A stretch of 25,078 nt of DNA from a virus (taxonomy: Duplodnaviria > Heunggongvirae > Uroviricota > Caudoviricetes). The translations under genes and the position numbers were made by a program. Below the pieces are notes generated by a model, which worked only from the letters and a program-made list of their open reading frames with translations, searched no databases and was not told the DNA's origin. The DNA lies in IMG/VR virus record IMGVR_UViG_2671180547_000002. The stretch is one strand, 5' to 3'. Of this stretch, positions 1 to 8,416 are shown piece by piece (the first letter of the stretch is position 1; every line of letters begins with the position of its first letter).

Positions 1-83
1 AGGGACAGCTGATAGAAACAGAAGCCACTGGAGCACCTCAAAAACACCATCATACACTAAATCAGTAAGTTGGCAGCATCACC
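1..83 (-). mobile_element. IS1: IS1 terminal fragment: left end with terminal inverted repeat and the start of insA, element continues off the left edge
   Basis: Reverse complement of 1..83 reads GGTGATGCTGCCAACTTACTGAT...CCAGTGGCTTCTGTTTCTATCAGCTGTCCCT, which I recall as the IS1 left end (also present in Tn9-derived vectors); the inverted repeat is at 61..83 and the insA start (GTG, translating ASVSISCP) at about 26..28 on the minus strand. Confidence 0.75.
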
Positions 84-402
84 AGCCTTCTTGAGGCTAC
101 CACCTGTTTTCAGGTGTCATTCAGACGTGATTTGCCCCAGATTGGGAAAGCACGCTTTTTTCTCAGCTATCGTCCTCTTATTTTGCCGTTACATTTCTTT
201 TTGCATTCTAATGATTAATTTACAATAATAATATCGGTAATTATTGAGTAATAATAAATTAATTATTGCAAATGTAATTTAATTCCATCTTCGCGTTATA
301 TTCCAATCTTTAATCTCCGCATGGAACAAGTTGCATGCGTGACTATATTAAGACGACTTATAACCACCAAAACATTTGCTTTGCAAGCAAAAACAGTGAC
401 CA

Positions 403-431
403 TTGACTCTAAGAAAATTCCGATCTATTGT
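403..431 (+). promoter_or_regulatory. Candidate sigma70 promoter in the AT-rich island
   Basis: TTGACT at 403..408, a 17-bp spacer, then TATTGT at 426..431; the whole region is AT-rich so chance matches are likely. Confidence 0.25.
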
Positions 432-465
432 TAGGGTCATCAAAGTTACTTAACAGTATTCCGAA

Positions 466-567
466 ATGAAAATACAAAGCAAGCTAATTGTCTTATTAAA
501 CATTATTATTGCATTTATATTATTTGAGCTTTTAGCTCAAAAATTTGGTTTGAGTACATTATTTTAA
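466..567 (+). CDS. Hypothetical small hydrophobic peptide (33 aa)
   Basis: ATG at 466 to TAA at 565..567 encodes MKIQSKLIVLLNIIIAFILFELLAQKFGLSTLF; it sits between the candidate promoter and the terminator at 717..750 but has no clear Shine-Dalgarno. Confidence 0.2.
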   Translation: MKIQSKLIVLLNIIIAFILFELLAQKFGLSTLF

Positions 568-716
568 AGCAAGATAAACAATATCGGGCACTCTAGTTTT
601 TATAATTAACAATTAAACGTCCATAAAATGTTATTTACTTTTCTTCGCTATTGTCATATCTTAATATAGTGGCTTACGCCACTCTACTTTCATCACATTT
701 TGTACGTTTATGTACT

Positions 717-750
717 CGCCATGAAGCTCTTTCATGGCGATTTTTTATTC
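717..750 (+). terminator. Rho-independent terminator, plus strand
   Basis: Perfect 9-bp stem CGCCATGAA (717..725) / TTCATGGCG (731..739) with loop GCTCT, followed by ATTTTTTATTC; on the minus strand the hairpin is not followed by a U-tract. Confidence 0.5.
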
Positions 751-832
751 TTAATCCAAGAACATACTCCCTACCTATAGCAAAATCACTTTTTTAACAA
801 AAGAATAACGTATTTAGGTAATCATTACGAAT

Positions 833-1414
833 TTACCCTATAGGTGCTACTGGCCATTCAATATCCGGTGCAGTTGATGTATCAACACGGTTCAGCAACA
901 CCCGATACTTTTTCCAAGCTTCCAGCAACAAGGTTTCTTTCTCCGTTGCGATCTCCAGATCCACAGCATCCTGAAGCGGCGCTATATGCTCACTGGCTAC
1001 CTGCATCAGGCTGTTTTTTGTTTCTTCCGCCTCCCGGATCCGGAACAGTTTTTCTGCTTCCGTATCCTTCACCCAGGCTGTGCCGTTCCACTTCTGAAAC
1101 TCCCCTTCCGGGGATAACCAGGTGACATTTTCCGGTAATGAGCCGAGTTCAGAAATAAATAACGCGTCGCCGGAAGCCACGTCATAAACCGTTTTACCCC
1201 GATGATCTTCAACGAGATGCCACGATGACTCATCACTGTTGAAAACAGCCACGAAACCAGCCGGAATATCTGGCGGTGCAATATCGGTACTGTTTGCAGG
1301 CAGACCTGTATGAGGCGGAATATATGCGTCACCTTCACCAATAAATTCATTAGTTCCGGCCAGCAGGTTATAAATTTTTATGGTCCGTGCTTGTTCACTC
1401 ATTCTGAATGCCAT
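833..1414 (-). CDS. tfa: Tail fiber assembly protein Tfa
   Basis: 193-aa ORF beginning [44 protein letters not shown], near-identical to lambda Tfa; its ATG shares one base with the stf stop (TAATG). Confidence 0.93.
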
Positions 1415-4400
1415 TATGCGAGCCTCACAATATAGTTAAATGCGATGTTTTTGACGGTGTTTTCCGCGTTACCAGCAGCGTTAACGGTGATGGTGTGTCC
1501 ATGTGAACCAATCGCAACAGAGTGCGTATGAGCACCAATACCGACAGTATGCGCGTGTGCACCCGCAGATGCTGCTGTGCCGGACAGTGAGTGTGTATGG
1601 TTTCCTTCTGAAGATGATTTACCTACCCATTGGGAGGTGCCACTGGTTAATGAGCCACTGATACCAACCTGATTAGTCCCGCTAACTTGAGTACTCCCTG
1701 CCGGAAACATTCCAGTAGGTTGACTCCCGCTATTCGTTCTGGGCCCAGTCTGACTATGTTGGTGGGCCCCAGCTGAACTTGTAGAGCCGCTCAGACTGTG
1801 CGTATGCGCCCCGGTGTTATTCGTGGATTTAGTGCCGTAATCAAACGACGATGTGGTTTTCGTCCCCAAATCCGTACTGGATGCGCTGGCGCTGTGGGTG
1901 TGCGATTTAATGCCATCCTGTTCCTGAGACAATACGGCACGACCACTGGCGGGCTTGCCCTTAATCGTCCAGCCACGCATATCAGGGATCACGCCTGACG
2001 GATAAGCGGCTGCAAGTTTCGGGTAAGCAGATTTGTCAAAAGTCTGCCCCTGCATCAGGGCATAACCAGACGGAACGGTATCTGATGGCCACGGGATTGG
2101 TGCACCGACTGGATAAAACTCTGCAGGAGGATGAGCCGAGGTGTAAAGCTGCGCCCACGGCGACCAGTTTGCGTCGGTCGTATCCCGTCGTGAACGAATA
2201 AATGCCGGAGCATGAGCACCGCTTGTACCACTCCAGCCGATGAGTAACTCACCTTCGCCAACGGCTGTCATCCCTTTCAGGTGAATGATATTTCCATACG
2301 CTGTTGGATATCCGTTGTTATACACCTCGTATAACTCAAGACCTGCTGCCCCCTGCGTATTGTCTGTCAGCGCGGCTACCCGACCTTTTGAAGCCAGATT
2401 AACTGATGATACTGCTGTTCCACCTGACGGTAGCGCCCCGATCTCTGATGCCGTTGGCTTATTTCTGGAGTTATAGTCCCTTCGCCAGCCAGGTGAATAA
2501 TCTGTTCCGTGATTAATATAGGTAAACTGGGCGTTGGTTGTTCCGCCACCGCTGGATGTGGTCGGAGTGGTAATGCGGATCGTCATCGCTGACTTTATCC
2601 CCATTACTTCAATGACAGCTCCGGCGAGATGAATATTACCGCAGCCAGTATCAGTAATGATTTTATTATTGCCATAAGACCAGGAACCCTTGCACATCCA
2701 GTATGGATGGTTAAATGCTCCCTGAGAATCCAGCCACTCGATAAACTGTGCAGTCGTCCAGTTTCCTGTTGTTGTGCTTACTGACCCACCGAAGGCACGG
2801 CAGGCACCAATATTTTTCGTAAAGGTGTCTTTGCCAGGGATATCCGCACCGTTCTGATCTTTCTGCAGACGTTTCTCAGCATTGTCATTGGCTGCTTTTA
2901 CTGCCTTTGGCGTTGCCGCCAGCGTTTCAGACGTGCTGTTGGTCGCGCTGCTTAGCTGGATTATCCCTTTCTGTGCTGTCGTTGCATCCTGTGCGGTGTA
3001 TTTCCCGTTAGCCAGGTCATACGCGGCCTTAACGGCTTTTGGTGTTGCCGCCAGTGACTCGGAAGTGCTGTTAGTCGCACTACTGAGCTGTACTATCCCC
3101 TTTTTCGTCGTGCTCGCATCCTCAAGCGCCACGGCGGATGCAATATCCTCTGCCCGTTTTGCCGCTGTCTCAGCGCGCGTTGCTGCAGATTCCGCCGTAC
3201 TTTTGCTCTGAGCTGCTGCCGTCGCACTACCAGCAGCCTCTGTCGCCTTCGTGGATGCCGTCGTGGCGCTGCCCTTCGCTGCTGACGCCTGTCTGGTCGC
3301 CTCATCTTTTGAAGCAGACGCCGATGATGCCGATGACGCCGCCGAACTGGCGGACGATGCGGCAGCCGTTTTTGAGGATTCTGCACGGGTTTCCGACGCT
3401 TTCGCGTTCGTTTCGGATGTCTTCGCTGCGGAAGCTGACCTCGCTGCTGCCGTGGCCTGCTCAGTGGCTTCGCCAGCCTTCGTTGTGGCTGTTGAAGCGG
3501 ATGATGCGGCGCTTTCTGCCGATTTTCCGGCGGCGGTGGCACTGGCTGAGGCCTGCCCGGCACTTGTTGACGCGGCGCTGGCAGACGACGCAGCCGCTGT
3601 TTTTGAGCCTGCCGCAGCTGAGGCACTCTGTCCCGCTGCCGTTTCAGAAGACCTGGCGTTCGTCTCGGACGTTTTGGCCGCCTTCGCAGAATTTGCAGCC
3701 GCCGTCGCCGAGGAAGCTGCGCTACTGGCGCTTGATGATGCGTTCGTTTCTGATGATTTTGCCGCCTCTTTTGAAGCCGACGCATCCCGGGCTGAGGTGG
3801 CAGCTTCTGACGCTTTCGTGGTCGCGGTGGATGCAGAAGTGGCTGCTGATTGTTGTGACGCTGCCGCATTCGTTTCTAACGTTTTCGCCGCACCGGCACT
3901 GGTAGCCGCCGCGCTTTTTGAGGACTCTGCAGCGGCAGCACTTTTTGAGGCTTCAGTGGCCTTTGTTGATGCCGTTCCTGCGCTGGAAGACGCTGACTGA
4001 GCCGACGAAGCGGCCTGTCCGGCTGACGTGCTGGCTGCACGTGCTGAATCTGCAGCATCAGTCGCATGGGTTGCCGCCTCACGGGCTGATGTGCTGGCAT
4101 CGCTGGCTGATTTCTTCGCGGCTGCCGTGTTCTGTGCCACCGCGGACGCGTTACGCGCCACCTCTTCCACCATCAGCTCAAAACGGCGCAGTGCCTCCGG
4201 ACGGGCATCATCCTCCGTCATGGCACCGAGAAAATCATTCAGCGTACCGGGTCGGGAATCTTCATACACGGTGATGGTCCCGGCATGTGACGGCGGGAAT
4301 CCTTCCACCAACAGAATAACGCTGTACTGACCGTACTCAACGTCCATGCTGTAACGCCCGGCTTCATCCGGATTTTCTGAGGCCAGCGTGTTCACCACCA

Positions 4401-4497
4401 CCGTGGTGCTGTTACGTTTTGCTTTCAGCTGGATTGTGCAGTTCTGTACCGGTTTTCCTGTGCCGTCTTTCAGTACACCTGAAATCTTTACTGCCAT
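1414..4497 (-). CDS. stf: Side tail fiber protein Stf, long mosaic form (1027 aa)
   Basis: N-terminus [26 protein letters not shown] matches lambda Stf; a long Ala/Ser/Thr-rich low-complexity centre follows, then a C-terminus with repeated His motifs (GAHTHS, GAHQHS, GAHAHT, GSHGHT) ending [18 protein letters not shown]. The ATG at 4495..4497 follows GGGGTG; the track's GTG at 4503 is probably not the start. Confidence 0.9.
2890..3135 (-). repeat. Imperfect tandem duplication (about 120-bp unit) inside stf
   Basis: Two adjacent DNA units encode [27 protein letters not shown] and [27 protein letters not shown]; lambda Stf as I recall it has one copy. Confidence 0.7.
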
Positions 4498-4506
4498 ATT
4501 CACCCC

Positions 4507-4536
4507 ACAAAAAAGCCCGCCTGAACCGGCGGGCTG
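4507..4536 (-). terminator. Rho-independent terminator between lom and stf
   Basis: On the minus strand GCCCGCC-GGTTCA-GGCGGGC (stems at 4515..4521 and 4528..4534) is followed by TTTTTTGTGG, directly upstream of the stf ATG. Confidence 0.6.
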
Positions 4537-4561
4537 TCATAACACTGTGTTACCTGGCTAA

Positions 4562-4656
4562 TCAGAATTTATAACCGACACCCACGATGAAACCGTCAGT
4601 GCGCCAGAGACGTGTTGCTGTGGCGACCGTCATCACTTCCGGTCAGCACATCGTGC
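4562..4656 (-). pseudogene. lom: lom 3' remnant (Ail/Lom/PagC outer-membrane protein family), frameshifted and truncated by a gap
   Basis: Minus-strand translation ends WRTDGFIVGVGYKF-stop, the lambda Lom C-terminus; just upstream, HDVLTGSDDGRHSNTSLA matches lambda Lom in a different frame, implying loss of about 26 codons plus a frameshift. The rest of the gene falls in the N-run 4657..4707. Confidence 0.7.
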
Positions 4657-4707
4657 NNNNNNNNNNNNNNNNNNNNNNNNNNNNNNNNNNNNNNNNNNNN
4701 NNNNNNN
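4657..4707. other. Assembly gap (N-run) within the lom region
   Basis: 51 Ns; at least about 400 nt of lom N-terminal coding sequence would have to lie here, so the true length is unknown. Confidence 0.9.
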
Positions 4708-4728
4708 TTTATTGGGGTTATAAATATT

Positions 4729-7700
4729 TCAACGAATACTGATGCCGGAAGCCGCTTTTTTGGTCACAATCACCGTACAGTCGGTGATATTGCCTGCCCC
4801 CTGATTGCCTTTCTGGAAAATCTTAAACTCCAGAGTGACGCTACCACCACCACTAGGCATATCAATAACTGCACTGTAACTACCGGGAATGGCACCTTTA
4901 GTTTCTCTGGATGCGATTAATACGCCGTTTTTGCGAACTTCAAAACCATAACCCGTGTATCGCGTGCCTCCTGGGTTATTTCCGCTCCCCGGATCGTCAT
5001 ACGCTATACCGTTAAAAATAATGGGCGGAATAATAATCTGGCGGTCAAAGTTATGATCATCGCTTATGGTGACTGTAACCGTCCCGTTTGGTGTTTCCGT
5101 GTTACCCCACGTACCAGCCTGTTTCGGAAATGATTTGGATACAGCTTTAACGAAGTCACCTCTGACCTGAGTCGCCTCCAGCATGCCCTTAATCGTACAG
5201 TTTTCATTTACCGTGACATTGTTGAGCGTCCCGGCGTTCGCATTCACACTGCCACTGATATCCGCATTTTTAGCGGTCAGCTTTCCGTCCGGAGTCAGGG
5301 AAAATGCCGATGGATTTCCACCGCTGGTAATGGTGGGGGCCGTCAGGCGTTTCAGGAACACGTCGTTCATGAATATCTGATCGCCCTGACCAACAAACAT
5401 CGGTTTTGTGTTGCCATTCGCAGGATTAACCATCGCAATCCTGTCCGCCGCCAGCAGCACCTGACTCTGCATGCCGTCAGGGGTGTTCTCAATACCGGCA
5501 CCAATACCCGCGATATAAAGGCGTCCGTCCTGCATCTGCTGCAGCTTCACAGCCCACATGCTGTTCAGGTTATTATTTGTATCAACCTGAACCTTCTGTA
5601 TCTGCTGAATTGCCGCACTCTGGTCTTCCAGTTTCTTATTGACGGTCTGCGTGATTTCATTGCTGACATCCGTAATGGACGTCCTGATTTCAGCCAGGTC
5701 AGGCGCAAGCTGACCGTTATCAATCTGCGTCCACAGCTCCTGAGCCAGATGGGTTTTCCCTATCTCGCCTTTGAAAAAATCCAGATAACCGGATGCATCA
5801 TCACTCGGCTGACCAACAGCCTCCACGAATGCCGATTTGCCAACGGTGTTCACACTGCGGATATAAAAGTAATAATCATGGCCCGGTTTGATATTGATAC
5901 TGGCGGCTATCCAGTACAGCGCCGTGCCAAGATAGCGTGCTGTGGTTTCAACCTGCCTGATATCCGCAATCCGCTTTTCCGAGAACCAGAACTCAAACTG
6001 TACCGTCGGATCATAAACCGCAAGATGCGGCGTGGCGGTTATCTGAAAATAGCCCGGCGTCAGCTCAATCCGCGACAGCGCTGCCGGTGCGGCAATCCGG
6101 AACGATACCGACGCCGGATCGCCCTGCTGCCCCCACGCATTTACTGCCCGGACTGTCAGCCTGTAGTTCCCCAGCGCCAGTTGTGTGAAGCGGTAAGTGG
6201 TTTCCGTCGTCCGGGCCGTGCTGACCAGCCGCTCACTGCCGTCATCCGCTGCCACGGTCAGGCGAAGCATAAAGCTCACCCCCTTCACCACCTTCGGCGT
6301 GTCCCAGCGCGCCAGCACCTGANNNNNNNNNNNNNNNNNNNNNNNNNNNNNNNNNNNNNNNNNNNNNNNNNNNNNNNNNNNNNNNNNNNNNNNNNNNNNN
6401 NNNNNNNNNNNNNNNNNNNNNNNNNNNNNNNNNNNNNNNNNNNNNNNNNNNNNNNNNNNNNNNNNNNNNNNNNNNNNNNNNNNNNNNNNNNNNNNNNNNN
6501 NNNNNNNNNNNNNNNNNNNNNNNNNNNNNNNNNNNNNNNNNNNTCAGGTGCTGCACCGCTGGCGGCGTGACACCATTCACCGTGCCGCTCTGGTCGCCGT
6601 CAAAGTGCGCCCCGTTATCCACGATGGCTTCTTTTTCCGGCACATGCTGCACGGCGGTGATGGCATACGTGCCGTCGTCGTTCTCACGGATACTCACGCA
6701 GCGGAACAGGCGCTGGCGCAACGTCGGCAGCTTCAGCCCCCACACGCTGTATTCAGCAACACCGTCAGGAACACGGCTCACTTTTACCTTCACGCCGTCG
6801 GTGACGGACTGGACCTCCACGCTGACCGGATTCCCCTGCCCGTCAACCAGGCTTATCAGCGTGGTGCCGGAGGATGGCAGCGTGATTTCACGGTCGAGCG
6901 TCAGCGTCCGGGTCTGGCTGTTCACCGCCAGCACGCGCCCGCCGGTGCGGATACCGGCATAGTCATCATCGCAGATTTCAATGACATCGCCCGGTACATG
7001 ACGAAGCCCTTCAGCACCCACGCTGAAATCCACGGTCTGCGTCTCCAGCAGTTCCGTTTTAATCAGCCACAGCCCGGCGCGGTGTGCCTGCCCCCGGCTG
7101 GTACAGCCAAAGGCATCCATCTTCGTGACGTTACGACCGTAACGGACAATGGCCTGCGTATCCTCCACAAGCTCTGTCGCCGTCTCCCAGCCGTTATCCG
7201 GGTCAATCCAGTTCACCTCAACGGCATTATGGCGGTCTTTCAGGGCGCTGAAACTGTAGCGGAACGGCGCGCCATCATCCGGCATCACCACATTACTGCG
7301 GTTATAGGCCCACACCTTATCCGACTGTCGGTCCTGCACGAACGTCAGCGTCTGCCCGTTCCATACCGGCATACAGCGCATCGCCGAGCAGAAATCACTG
7401 AGCACATCCCACGCCTTGCGCTGTGTGGTCAGCCAGGCATTACAGGTGATGCGCGGCTCCGTGCTGCCAAAGCCGTCCGGCACCGACTGGTCACAGTACT
7501 GGCCGATGACATACAGCGCCCATTTATCCACATCTGCCGCACCAAGACGTTTCCCCATGCCATAGCGCGGATGGGTCAGCATATCCCACAGACACCAGGC
7601 CATGTTGTTGCTGTATGCCGGTTTTAACGTTCCGTCCCAGATACCGCTGTATTGCCGCGTCTGCGGATTATAGTTCGACGGCACCTGCAGAATGCGCCCG

Positions 7701-8416
7701 CGAAGATGATAATTACGGCTCACCTGCTGGCTGCCGAACTGCTCCGAATCCACCTGTACGCCGACCAGTGCCGTGTTCGGGTAGCACTGTTTCACATCGA
7801 TGATTTCGGTGTATGACGACCAGAGCGTTTTGTTCTGCAGCTGGTCTGTGGTGCTGTCCGGCGTCATTCTGCGCATCCGGATATTAAACGGGCGCGGCGG
7901 CAGGTTATCCACCACCACCGAGGCCAGATACTGCGAGGTGGTTTTGCCCTTAATGGTGATGTCTTTTTCCGTCACCCAGCCACCGTTACGCTGTATCTGA
8001 ACCAGCAGGCGAACTTCAGACGGATTCCTGTCTCCCTTTGAGGTGGTTTCCACCAGTGCCTGTACACCGAAGGTAAAACGCAGTCGGTCAATGTTTGCCG
8101 ACGTGATGGTCCGGGTGATCGGCGTGTCATATTTCACTTCCGTACCCAGCACCGTCTCGGAGCCGGAGGATTCAAATCCCTCCGGCGGTGACTGCTCCTG
8201 CTCACCTGCCCGGAACACCACCGTGACGCCGGAGATGTTGGTATTCCCCTCACTGTCCAGCACCGGCGTACTGTTCAGCAGCACGCTTTTTAATCCATCC
8301 ACCGGACCTTCAACCGGCCCTTCGCTGATGGCATCGATCACACTCAGCAGCTGCGTGGACTTCAGGTTGTCCTTCGCTTCGCGCGGGGTATGCCCCTTAC
8401 TGCTGCCTTTACCCAT
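4729..8416 (-). CDS. J: Tail tip / host specificity protein J, interrupted by an assembly gap; C-terminal domain not lambda-like
   Basis: N-terminal segment (6544..8416) begins [34 protein letters not shown] and matches lambda J; the segment 4729..6318 matches the J fibronectin-like region ([15 protein letters not shown]...), then diverges and ends [10 protein letters not shown]. The two segments are in different frames across the N-run. Confidence 0.9.
6323..6543. other. Assembly gap (N-run) inside J
   Basis: 221 Ns; the flanking J segments are in different frames and lambda has only about 13 codons between the flanking motifs, so the run length is arbitrary. Confidence 0.9.

Follow-up and report, generated by a model that had tools for sequence, protein, structure and literature searches.

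Lambdoid phages carry morons, which are accessory genes that each bring a promoter and a terminator, like lom and bor of phage lambda, cor of phi80 and gp15 of HK97. We analysed a stretch of 25,078 nucleotides (the window) from a tailed virus of Caudoviricetes, IMG/VR record IMGVR_UViG_2671180547_000002, and here we describe its short AT-rich region between the end of an insertion sequence (IS1) and the tail fiber assembly gene tfa. We propose, with a rough probability of 70%, that window ~290..832 is a self-contained accessory cassette of the moron kind, which encodes a prophage paralogue of the small membrane protein YncL. Both the small-protein family and the kind of element that carries it would be known ones; its member on the phage is unannotated.

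The closest described protein is YncL of Escherichia coli. Heat shock and minimal medium both induce it, and its production from plasmid caused sublethal membrane depolarisation, an induced phage-shock response, nucleoid condensation and more sensitivity to magainin-2; it has been linked to "metabolic silencing" as well (PMC12542507). It is also a candidate substrate of the protease RseP (PMC10470546). In RNA interaction by ligation and sequencing (RIL-seq) data, the chromosomal yncL was listed as a target of KilS, a small RNA (sRNA) from the Rac prophage gene kilR, so that prophages and YncL are linked in a second way (PMC8175672).

The region 84..832 had a G+C content of 27-34% in 200-nt windows, against 45-55% in the flanks. 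No open reading frame (ORF) of at least 60 amino acids was found inside it, and the longest one (52 amino acids, 70..228) started within IS1. An earlier note on this DNA, made from the letters before any database search, had described such an AT-rich island after tfa, together with a promoter-like site, a 33-residue hydrophobic ORF and a terminator. All the features it listed were confirmed, none displaced by more than one base, and its interpretation was partly supported. Eleven ORFs of at least 20 amino acids overlapped the region, so the bare existence of a 33-residue ORF is unremarkable. Promoter-like sites numbered 6 in 1.5 kb (4.8 ± 2.3 in shuffles), and terminator-like sites 2 (0.9 ± 1.0 in shuffles). 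Because the single features were not above chance by counting, their meaning had to come from comparison of copies.

Megablast with 84..832 found matches in 1,343 of 5,426 complete E. coli genomes, all of them chromosomal, and the annotation beneath the match was "none" for every match listed. Variant A matched over the full length in about 280 genomes and belonged to lambda-like prophages at att-lambda, adjoining ybhB and bioA. Variant B matched only window 255..832, with about 96% identity, in prophages at the Qin site in ydfJ. A third class of matches covered window 84..168 only and lay at the ends of unrelated lambdoid prophages. Variant C, about 80% identical, adjoined the sit locus, and variant D, about 94% identical, came from a viral metagenome contig with homology from window ~289 onward. 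The unit common to variants A-D is window ~290..832, always joined to the 3' end of tfa. With variant C as query, it was found in 829 complete E. coli genomes, in as many as four copies per genome. Coverage was at least 80% in 820 of these; about 820 of the 5,426 genomes (~15%, or around one in seven) therefore carry the unit. The copies number about 940 in all. Four deposited phage genomes carry it too (mEp332, PhiR70_1 and two ev099 records). Scans of viral contigs and a metagenome for more diverged copies gave variants A-D only, and a degenerate-pattern scan of the genome collection gave only the chromosomal yncL of E. coli and Citrobacter.

The ORF at 466..567 on the plus strand is under purifying selection and protein-coding. 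It has 33 codons, with the stop codon also inside these coordinates, and encodes the peptide MKIQSKLIVLLNIIIAFILFELLAQKFGLSTLF, predicted to be a single-pass small membrane protein with the membrane segment at about residues 7-24. Variants A and C differed at 12 codons of this ORF; seven of the changes were synonymous, and frame, start and stop were kept. The ratio of nonsynonymous to synonymous differences (pN/pS, Nei-Gojobori) was 0.16 between A and C (Fisher p 2e-5), 0.05 between A and D and 0.13 between C and D (Fisher p 5e-7). The two alternative frames of 466..567 contained stops and showed no synonymous bias. Every one of the 77 complete copies, taken from metagenomes, viral contigs and genomes, had frame, start and stop intact, and only three peptide variants occurred among them. 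ATG 466 is the sole possible start, because an in-frame TAA stands upstream at 451..453. The best 18-residue hydropathy window was 2.87 (residues 7-24), compared with 2.31 for YncL.

No annotation of the ORF was present in the RefSeq or phage records inspected, including the four phage genomes. Out of about 15 billion proteins, no more than one or two gene calls, all unnamed, had the exact peptide sequence, and apart from the protein itself, phmmer against 1.84 billion representatives returned a single frameshift variant. Pfam, PHROGs and PADLOC scans with the peptide and the other short ORFs of the region gave nothing usable. A full-text literature search gave nothing relevant on the peptide, on the sequences downstream of it or on prophage sRNAs near tfa.

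The sole NCBIfam match of the ORF was NF000537, "stress response membrane protein YncL", with 25.0 bits and E 1.3e-5 for variant A over profile positions 1-28 of 30, and 23.5 bits and E 3.7e-5 for variant C. Ten shuffled or reversed controls gave no match against NCBIfam even at E up to 10. YncL of K-12 (MNVSSRTVVLINFFAAVGLFTLISMRFGWFI) and YncL of Citrobacter aligned without gaps with the window protein from Met1 to Gly28, sharing S5, K/R6, V9-L10, N12, A16, L19-F20, L22 and K/R26-F27-G28. Smith-Waterman scores against YncL were 60-67, those of composition-preserving shuffles were 20 ± 4, and none of 5,000 shuffles reached the real score. We conclude from these alignments and from the profile scores that the window protein is most probably a diverged YncL paralogue with about 40% identity, not an equivalog, and it is very likely that the ORF is a genuine YncL-like gene. 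The small membrane peptide suggested in the earlier note thus gains both from the selection on the ORF and from its homology to a membrane protein. The toxin suggested there is possible only loosely, in that YncL production depolarises the membrane (PMC12542507); an antitoxin RNA was not found in the region.

The unit is a mobile mosaic element. It was found next to tfa at three locations: att-lambda, the Qin site in ydfJ and beside the sit locus. In K-12 MG1655 and E. coli B REL606 it is absent, and ynfT-ydfK-pinQ occupies the same Qin position. Since variant B genomes have the unit at this position and others have ynfT-ydfK-pinQ instead, the unit behaves as an exchangeable accessory cassette, and presence in some and absence in other related phages is what is seen with morons. 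In variants B and C, the unit was flanked on both sides by tfa 3' fragments of the same orientation (L005 ~4880..4990; L008 3892..3991 and 4596..4754), which suggests that the cassette may move between phages through recombination in tfa homology. Plaque-forming phages with the unit exist, and mEp332, accession PV340541.1, is recorded on K-12 MG1655; the strain TUM9757 is a natural carrier. The location corresponds to the lambda b region, as the earlier note had supposed: the gene order in phage ev099 is tail fibre, tfa, the unit, an AraC-family gene, IS remnants and integrase. At the equivalent prophage end, K-12 (L097 7891..8004) and REL606 (L098 30656..30769) have ynfT, encoding an unrelated hydrophobic protein of 37 amino acids (YnaM/YnfT family). 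The ends of lambdoid prophages seem to be a recurrent place for genes of small membrane proteins.

The putative sigma-70-like promoter lies at 403..431 on the plus strand, 35 nt upstream of the ATG, with -35 TTGACT (403..408), a 17-bp spacer and -10 TATTGT (426..431), at the place where the earlier note had reported it. The start would be near 438-440. The -35 was identical in variants A-D, the -10 was TATCGT in C, and the spacer was always 17 bp. Among 44 distinct copies of the unit, two of the 12 hexamer positions varied, against five of the six bases just downstream of the -10. This pattern is compatible with a promoter which may be in use, and is no proof of it. The predicted leader (~439..465) and the start codon were unpaired in the centroid fold. 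Further upstream, a block at 290..360 had 86% A-C identity, compared with 56% in 361..399, and both ORFs overlapping the block were disrupted in variant C. Lying 40-110 bp upstream of the -35, the block might have a regulatory role. Two other short ORFs were rejected as genes: 321..434 (+) had lost its ATG in variants B, C and D, and 296..403 (-) had an insertion or deletion in variant C. A hairpin in 290..360 was also dropped, as its apparent compensatory change between A and D was broken in B and C.

Downstream of the ORF, identity between A and C changed sharply by segment: 80% in the ORF, 65% with indels (8 gap columns) in 568..650, 90% in 651..750 and 65% in 751..832. The segment 568..650 (+) is a variable spacer, which would be the proximal part of the 3' untranslated region (UTR). 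It is followed by a 3' domain that is conserved and thermodynamically stable: the fold of 640..750 had z = -5.55 against shuffles. On the plus strand the fold gave a hairpin at 668..683 (AGUGGC-UUAC-GCCACU), the unpaired CUACUUUCAUCACAUUUU, a weak hairpin of four pairs and the terminator. The mostly unpaired stretch 684..715 (+), CUACUUUCAUCACAUUUUGUACGUUUAUGUAC, was the least variable part of the unit among the 44 distinct copies and is a candidate seed or Hfq-binding region of an sRNA; taken more widely, 680..740 was the least variable stretch and varied less than the tfa end. The intrinsic terminator (716..746, +) has a 10-11 bp stem at 716..740 followed by six T at 741..746. The earlier note had placed it at 717..750; its presence and its orientation, convergent with tfa, stand, and its start is one base off. 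So the gene has, at the level of sequence, a terminator of its own downstream, like a moron. Two one-sided changes in the hairpin 668..683 keep the pairing as G.U or U.G on the plus-strand RNA; read from the minus strand they would be mismatches. Thermodynamics and this strand asymmetry, not covariation, argue for the structure of the 3' domain. The ORF at 661..735 on the minus strand was rejected as a gene: all three A-C differences in it were non-synonymous, and the 3' domain is therefore not coding. A 25-nt inverted repeat (329..353 / 659..683), looked at as a lead for self-regulation or toxin-antitoxin function, was not kept in variant C.

Taken together, we propose that the cassette would work as follows. 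The sigma-70-like promoter would start an RNA of about 310 nt, consisting of a short unstructured leader, the 33-codon ORF, the variable spacer and the conserved 3' domain, and ending at the intrinsic terminator, which would stop the transcript before an antisense run into tfa. The product would be a single-pass inner-membrane protein. As transcription would be convergent with the late operon, expression would be expected in the lysogen rather than in lytic growth. By analogy with YncL, the protein might enter the inner membrane of the lysogen and there influence the membrane potential or envelope stress. Better stress tolerance, dormancy or the exclusion of other phages would be plausible benefits, and lysis timing may also be considered.

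Several points weigh against this cassette model. What the model says about use of the promoter, the ends of the RNA, production of the protein in lysogens, its place in the membrane and its effect on the cell is predicted from sequence. The function is extrapolated from a paralogue that shares about 40% identity and whose effects were seen with expression from a plasmid, and the NF000537 scores (25.0 and 23.5 bits) are under the curated NCBIfam cut-off of 35. The promoter matches the consensus at only 9 of 12 positions, and matches like this come at chance frequency in the AT-rich DNA of the region. There is no Shine-Dalgarno sequence before the ORF, and predicted pairing with the 16S rRNA 3' end was -0.4 kcal/mol, compared with -7.2 for K-12 yncL. 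Nothing else in the sequence argues as strongly against efficient translation, and on the other side of the balance stands the clear selection on the frame. Only four sequence variants exist, which leaves the selection test with three pairwise comparisons that are not independent of each other. Recombination history, and not constraint, could account for part of the uneven conservation along the unit. No compensatory double change was found at any base pair of the 3' domain; because only the few variants A-D exist, this covariation analysis was underpowered.

The first alternative is that an sRNA from the 3' domain (~668..746), released by processing of the mRNA or made from a weak internal promoter, is the main functional product. 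It overlaps with the cassette model, and the earlier note had also listed a small RNA. The 3' domain is more conserved than the ORF between A and C (90% against 80%), nearly invariant at 680..740 in the 44 distinct copies, and non-coding. Its fold, with a 5' hairpin, an unpaired U-rich stretch and a six-U terminator, is sRNA-like, and the one-sided hairpin changes preserve pairing on the plus strand only. The covariance models of MicC, Aar, RseX and Esr41 aligned with it end to end, but far below threshold: no Rfam family reached its threshold, the best being MicC with 22.8 bits against 90, and Esr41 had 15.6 against 102. The likeness to Hfq-dependent sRNAs is one of architecture only. A promoter scan reported no plus-strand site inside the 3' domain, and by eye only -10 candidates without a usable -35 were seen there. 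Duplexes predicted between 684..716 and four candidate targets (the start region of the own gene, the K-12 yncL start region, the leader of the AraC-family gene and the tfa 3' end) were no better than those of shuffles. The conserved 3' end could equally serve mRNA stability or termination. Conservation and an sRNA-like shape thus speak for a small RNA, but covariation, family membership and a clear promoter of its own did not appear; we regard an sRNA as the main product as possible, with odds clearly on the low side, and a separate sRNA function of the 3' domain is doubtful to about the same degree or slightly more. Transcripts giving both a peptide and an sRNA are known, such as AzuCR and SgrS. 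A dual-function RNA of this kind, with a YncL-like depolarising peptide and a trans-acting Hfq-type sRNA from the 3' domain rewiring host expression, is a rather unlikely, tentative extension of the cassette model.

The second alternative is a locus like type I toxin-antitoxin systems, in which a small depolarising peptide is checked by an antisense or partly complementary RNA. The peptide resembles type I toxins in size and hydrophobicity, its paralogue YncL depolarises the membrane, read-through from the late operon would be fully antisense to the gene, and there is a promoter-like site on the minus strand at 657..628. This site, the only promoter-like one on the minus strand, falls in the most variable part of the unit, though, and no conserved pair of minus-strand promoter and terminator was found in the unit. 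Divergently encoded antitoxins owe their complementarity to direct repeats, and no such repeats were found; the leader is predicted to be short and unstructured, not long and folded, no PADLOC model matched, and YncL itself is not known as a member of a toxin-antitoxin system. As no antitoxin RNA, suitable repeats or long folded leader was found, a type I system becomes less likely, and we regard it as improbable.

The history of the IS1 bears on the last alternative. The BLASTN comparison of 84..832 that the earlier note had proposed shows the unit widespread next to tfa and no gene interrupted by IS1. In the IS1-free relative L003, 1,505 bp separate tfa from a minus-strand gene of the AraC family. 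The same IS1 junction as in the window was found in L004 and at least 14 other genomes, and there IS1 stands in place of L003 4451..5000, a 550 bp spacer that includes a 3' fragment of tRNA-Ser (serU), with about 206 bp left upstream of the AraC gene. No matching flanking sequence pointing to a target duplication was seen, and the event looks like an IS1-associated deletion. As the left side of IS1 is beyond the window, this conclusion comes from the relatives with the identical junction. Between the end of the deletion and the ORF lie 380 bp, and the conserved unit starts about 200 bp to the right of that end. Because the unit is complete, identical to the copies without IS1, and the deletion is confined to the spacer, a cargo remnant truncated by IS1, as the earlier note had considered, is not supported. 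A non-functional AT-rich spacer or decayed cargo, with features by chance or as the stump of a gene cut by IS1, would agree with the chance frequency of promoter-like sites and short ORFs, with the mosaic remnants in parts of 84..289 and with the lack of annotation by any pipeline, but it is highly improbable given the purifying selection on the ORF, the specific homology to YncL, the identity of the unit in IS1-free genomes and phages, and the six-frame ORFs of the region, which matched no Pfam or PHROG family suggesting a decayed larger gene.

Next to the cassette, window 1..83 (-) is the end of IS1, with the reverse complement of its terminal inverted repeat IRL at 61..83; the relatives annotate a transposase of the IS1A family at the matching position. 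It forms the left limit and is outside the functional unit. The piece 84..168 (85 bp) belongs to a widespread "prophage-end" module, which in IS1-free relatives runs left into the tRNA-Ser (serU) 3' fragment. In unrelated lambdoid prophages, piece and fragment together (~255 bp) stood at the very end, with identities of 93-100% (L006 2880..3086; L007 2880..3085), for example in O26 RM8426 beside DUF1076-domain genes near uspF and in another strain near zinT. The module often adjoined a 55-residue ORF annotated "capsid protein", probably wrongly. The following 169..289 is AT-rich filler present only in the att-lambda type (variant A); homology of variants B and C starts near 255 and that of D near 289. 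In L003, the sequence 4831..4892, which we take to be the 3' half of tRNA-Ser (serU), lies in reverse orientation in the spacer that separates the AraC-family gene from the unit, and is deleted in the lineage of the window. This half resembles what would be left of the attachment site of a serU-integrating element, caught in the phage b region.

The AraC-family regulator lies at L003 3501..4244 (-), about 1.5 kb left of tfa, and just past IS1 in L004. Its highest similarity was to YdeO (149 bits) and GadX (111 bits), regulators of acid resistance, with each score below its cut-off. The prophage-borne regulators PatE/Psr of enterohaemorrhagic E. coli resemble this YdeO/GadX-like AraC-family neighbour. 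On the other side, tfa (833..1414, -) is an ORF of 193 amino acids, annotated in the relatives at the matching position as "tail fiber assembly protein"; the unit travels together with this gene as its anchor. A scan of the window at Rfam gathering thresholds gave only IS009 (RF02111), at 873..1071 (-) with 218 bits against a gathering score of 117, wholly inside tfa, and this "sRNA" family may simply model tfa-homologous DNA. After tfa comes the tail-fibre ORF of 1029 amino acids (1414..4503), annotated "prophage tail fiber" in near-identical relatives. The tail-tip gene J (4504..8416, -) appeared split into overlapping ORFs, 6242..8416 (724 amino acids) and 4729..6318 (529 amino acids). A lom-sized ORF between J and the tail-fibre gene, present in relatives, was absent from the window. 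The prophage may be defective, or there may be a sequence error.

Small membrane proteins are routinely missed by annotation, and the unit sometimes occurs in several prophages of one genome. A phage-borne copy of YncL would be a candidate for lysogenic conversion, with possible effects on stress tolerance, persistence, sensitivity to antimicrobial peptides and resistance to other phages. It would also offer a natural second member of the family for structure-function work on YncL. If the dual function were true, about 15% of complete E. coli genomes would hold a phage-borne counterpart of RNAs of the AzuCR/SgrS type.

Type I toxins and small depolarising peptides (Hok, Ldr, TisB, ZorO and YohP) have about 30 amino acids and one hydrophobic helix, as in the window gene, and YohP shares sublethal depolarisation with YncL (PMC12542507). 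The window gene differs from them, as no antitoxin RNA, long folded leader or sequence similarity was found. The Hfq-dependent 3'-UTR or dual-function sRNAs (MicC, RseX, Esr41) likewise combine hairpin, unpaired U-rich stretch and U-tailed terminator; here these parts stand at the 3' end of a predicted small-protein mRNA, and the 3' domain shows neither family membership nor covariation.

Compared with YncL of K-12 (b4598, 31 amino acids), the window protein has 33 amino acids and is collinear from Met1, with a single hydrophobic helix in both and N12 inside the hydrophobic segment. The C-terminal tail is LSTLF in the window protein and WFI in YncL. The K-12 gene has the Shine-Dalgarno sequence AAAGGUGG, while the window gene lacks one. 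In K-12, yncL is located between patD and ortT, whereas the window gene is located next to tfa on lambdoid phages, in AT-rich DNA and with a conserved structured 3' domain that has no counterpart downstream of yncL. With phage morons, the cassette has in common a G+C content lower than its neighbours, a promoter-like site and a terminator around a single small gene, a position at the tail-fibre/b-region end, and presence or absence among related prophages. It differs from other morons in a much smaller protein, which belongs to a different family, and in a 3' untranslated part longer than the coding part.

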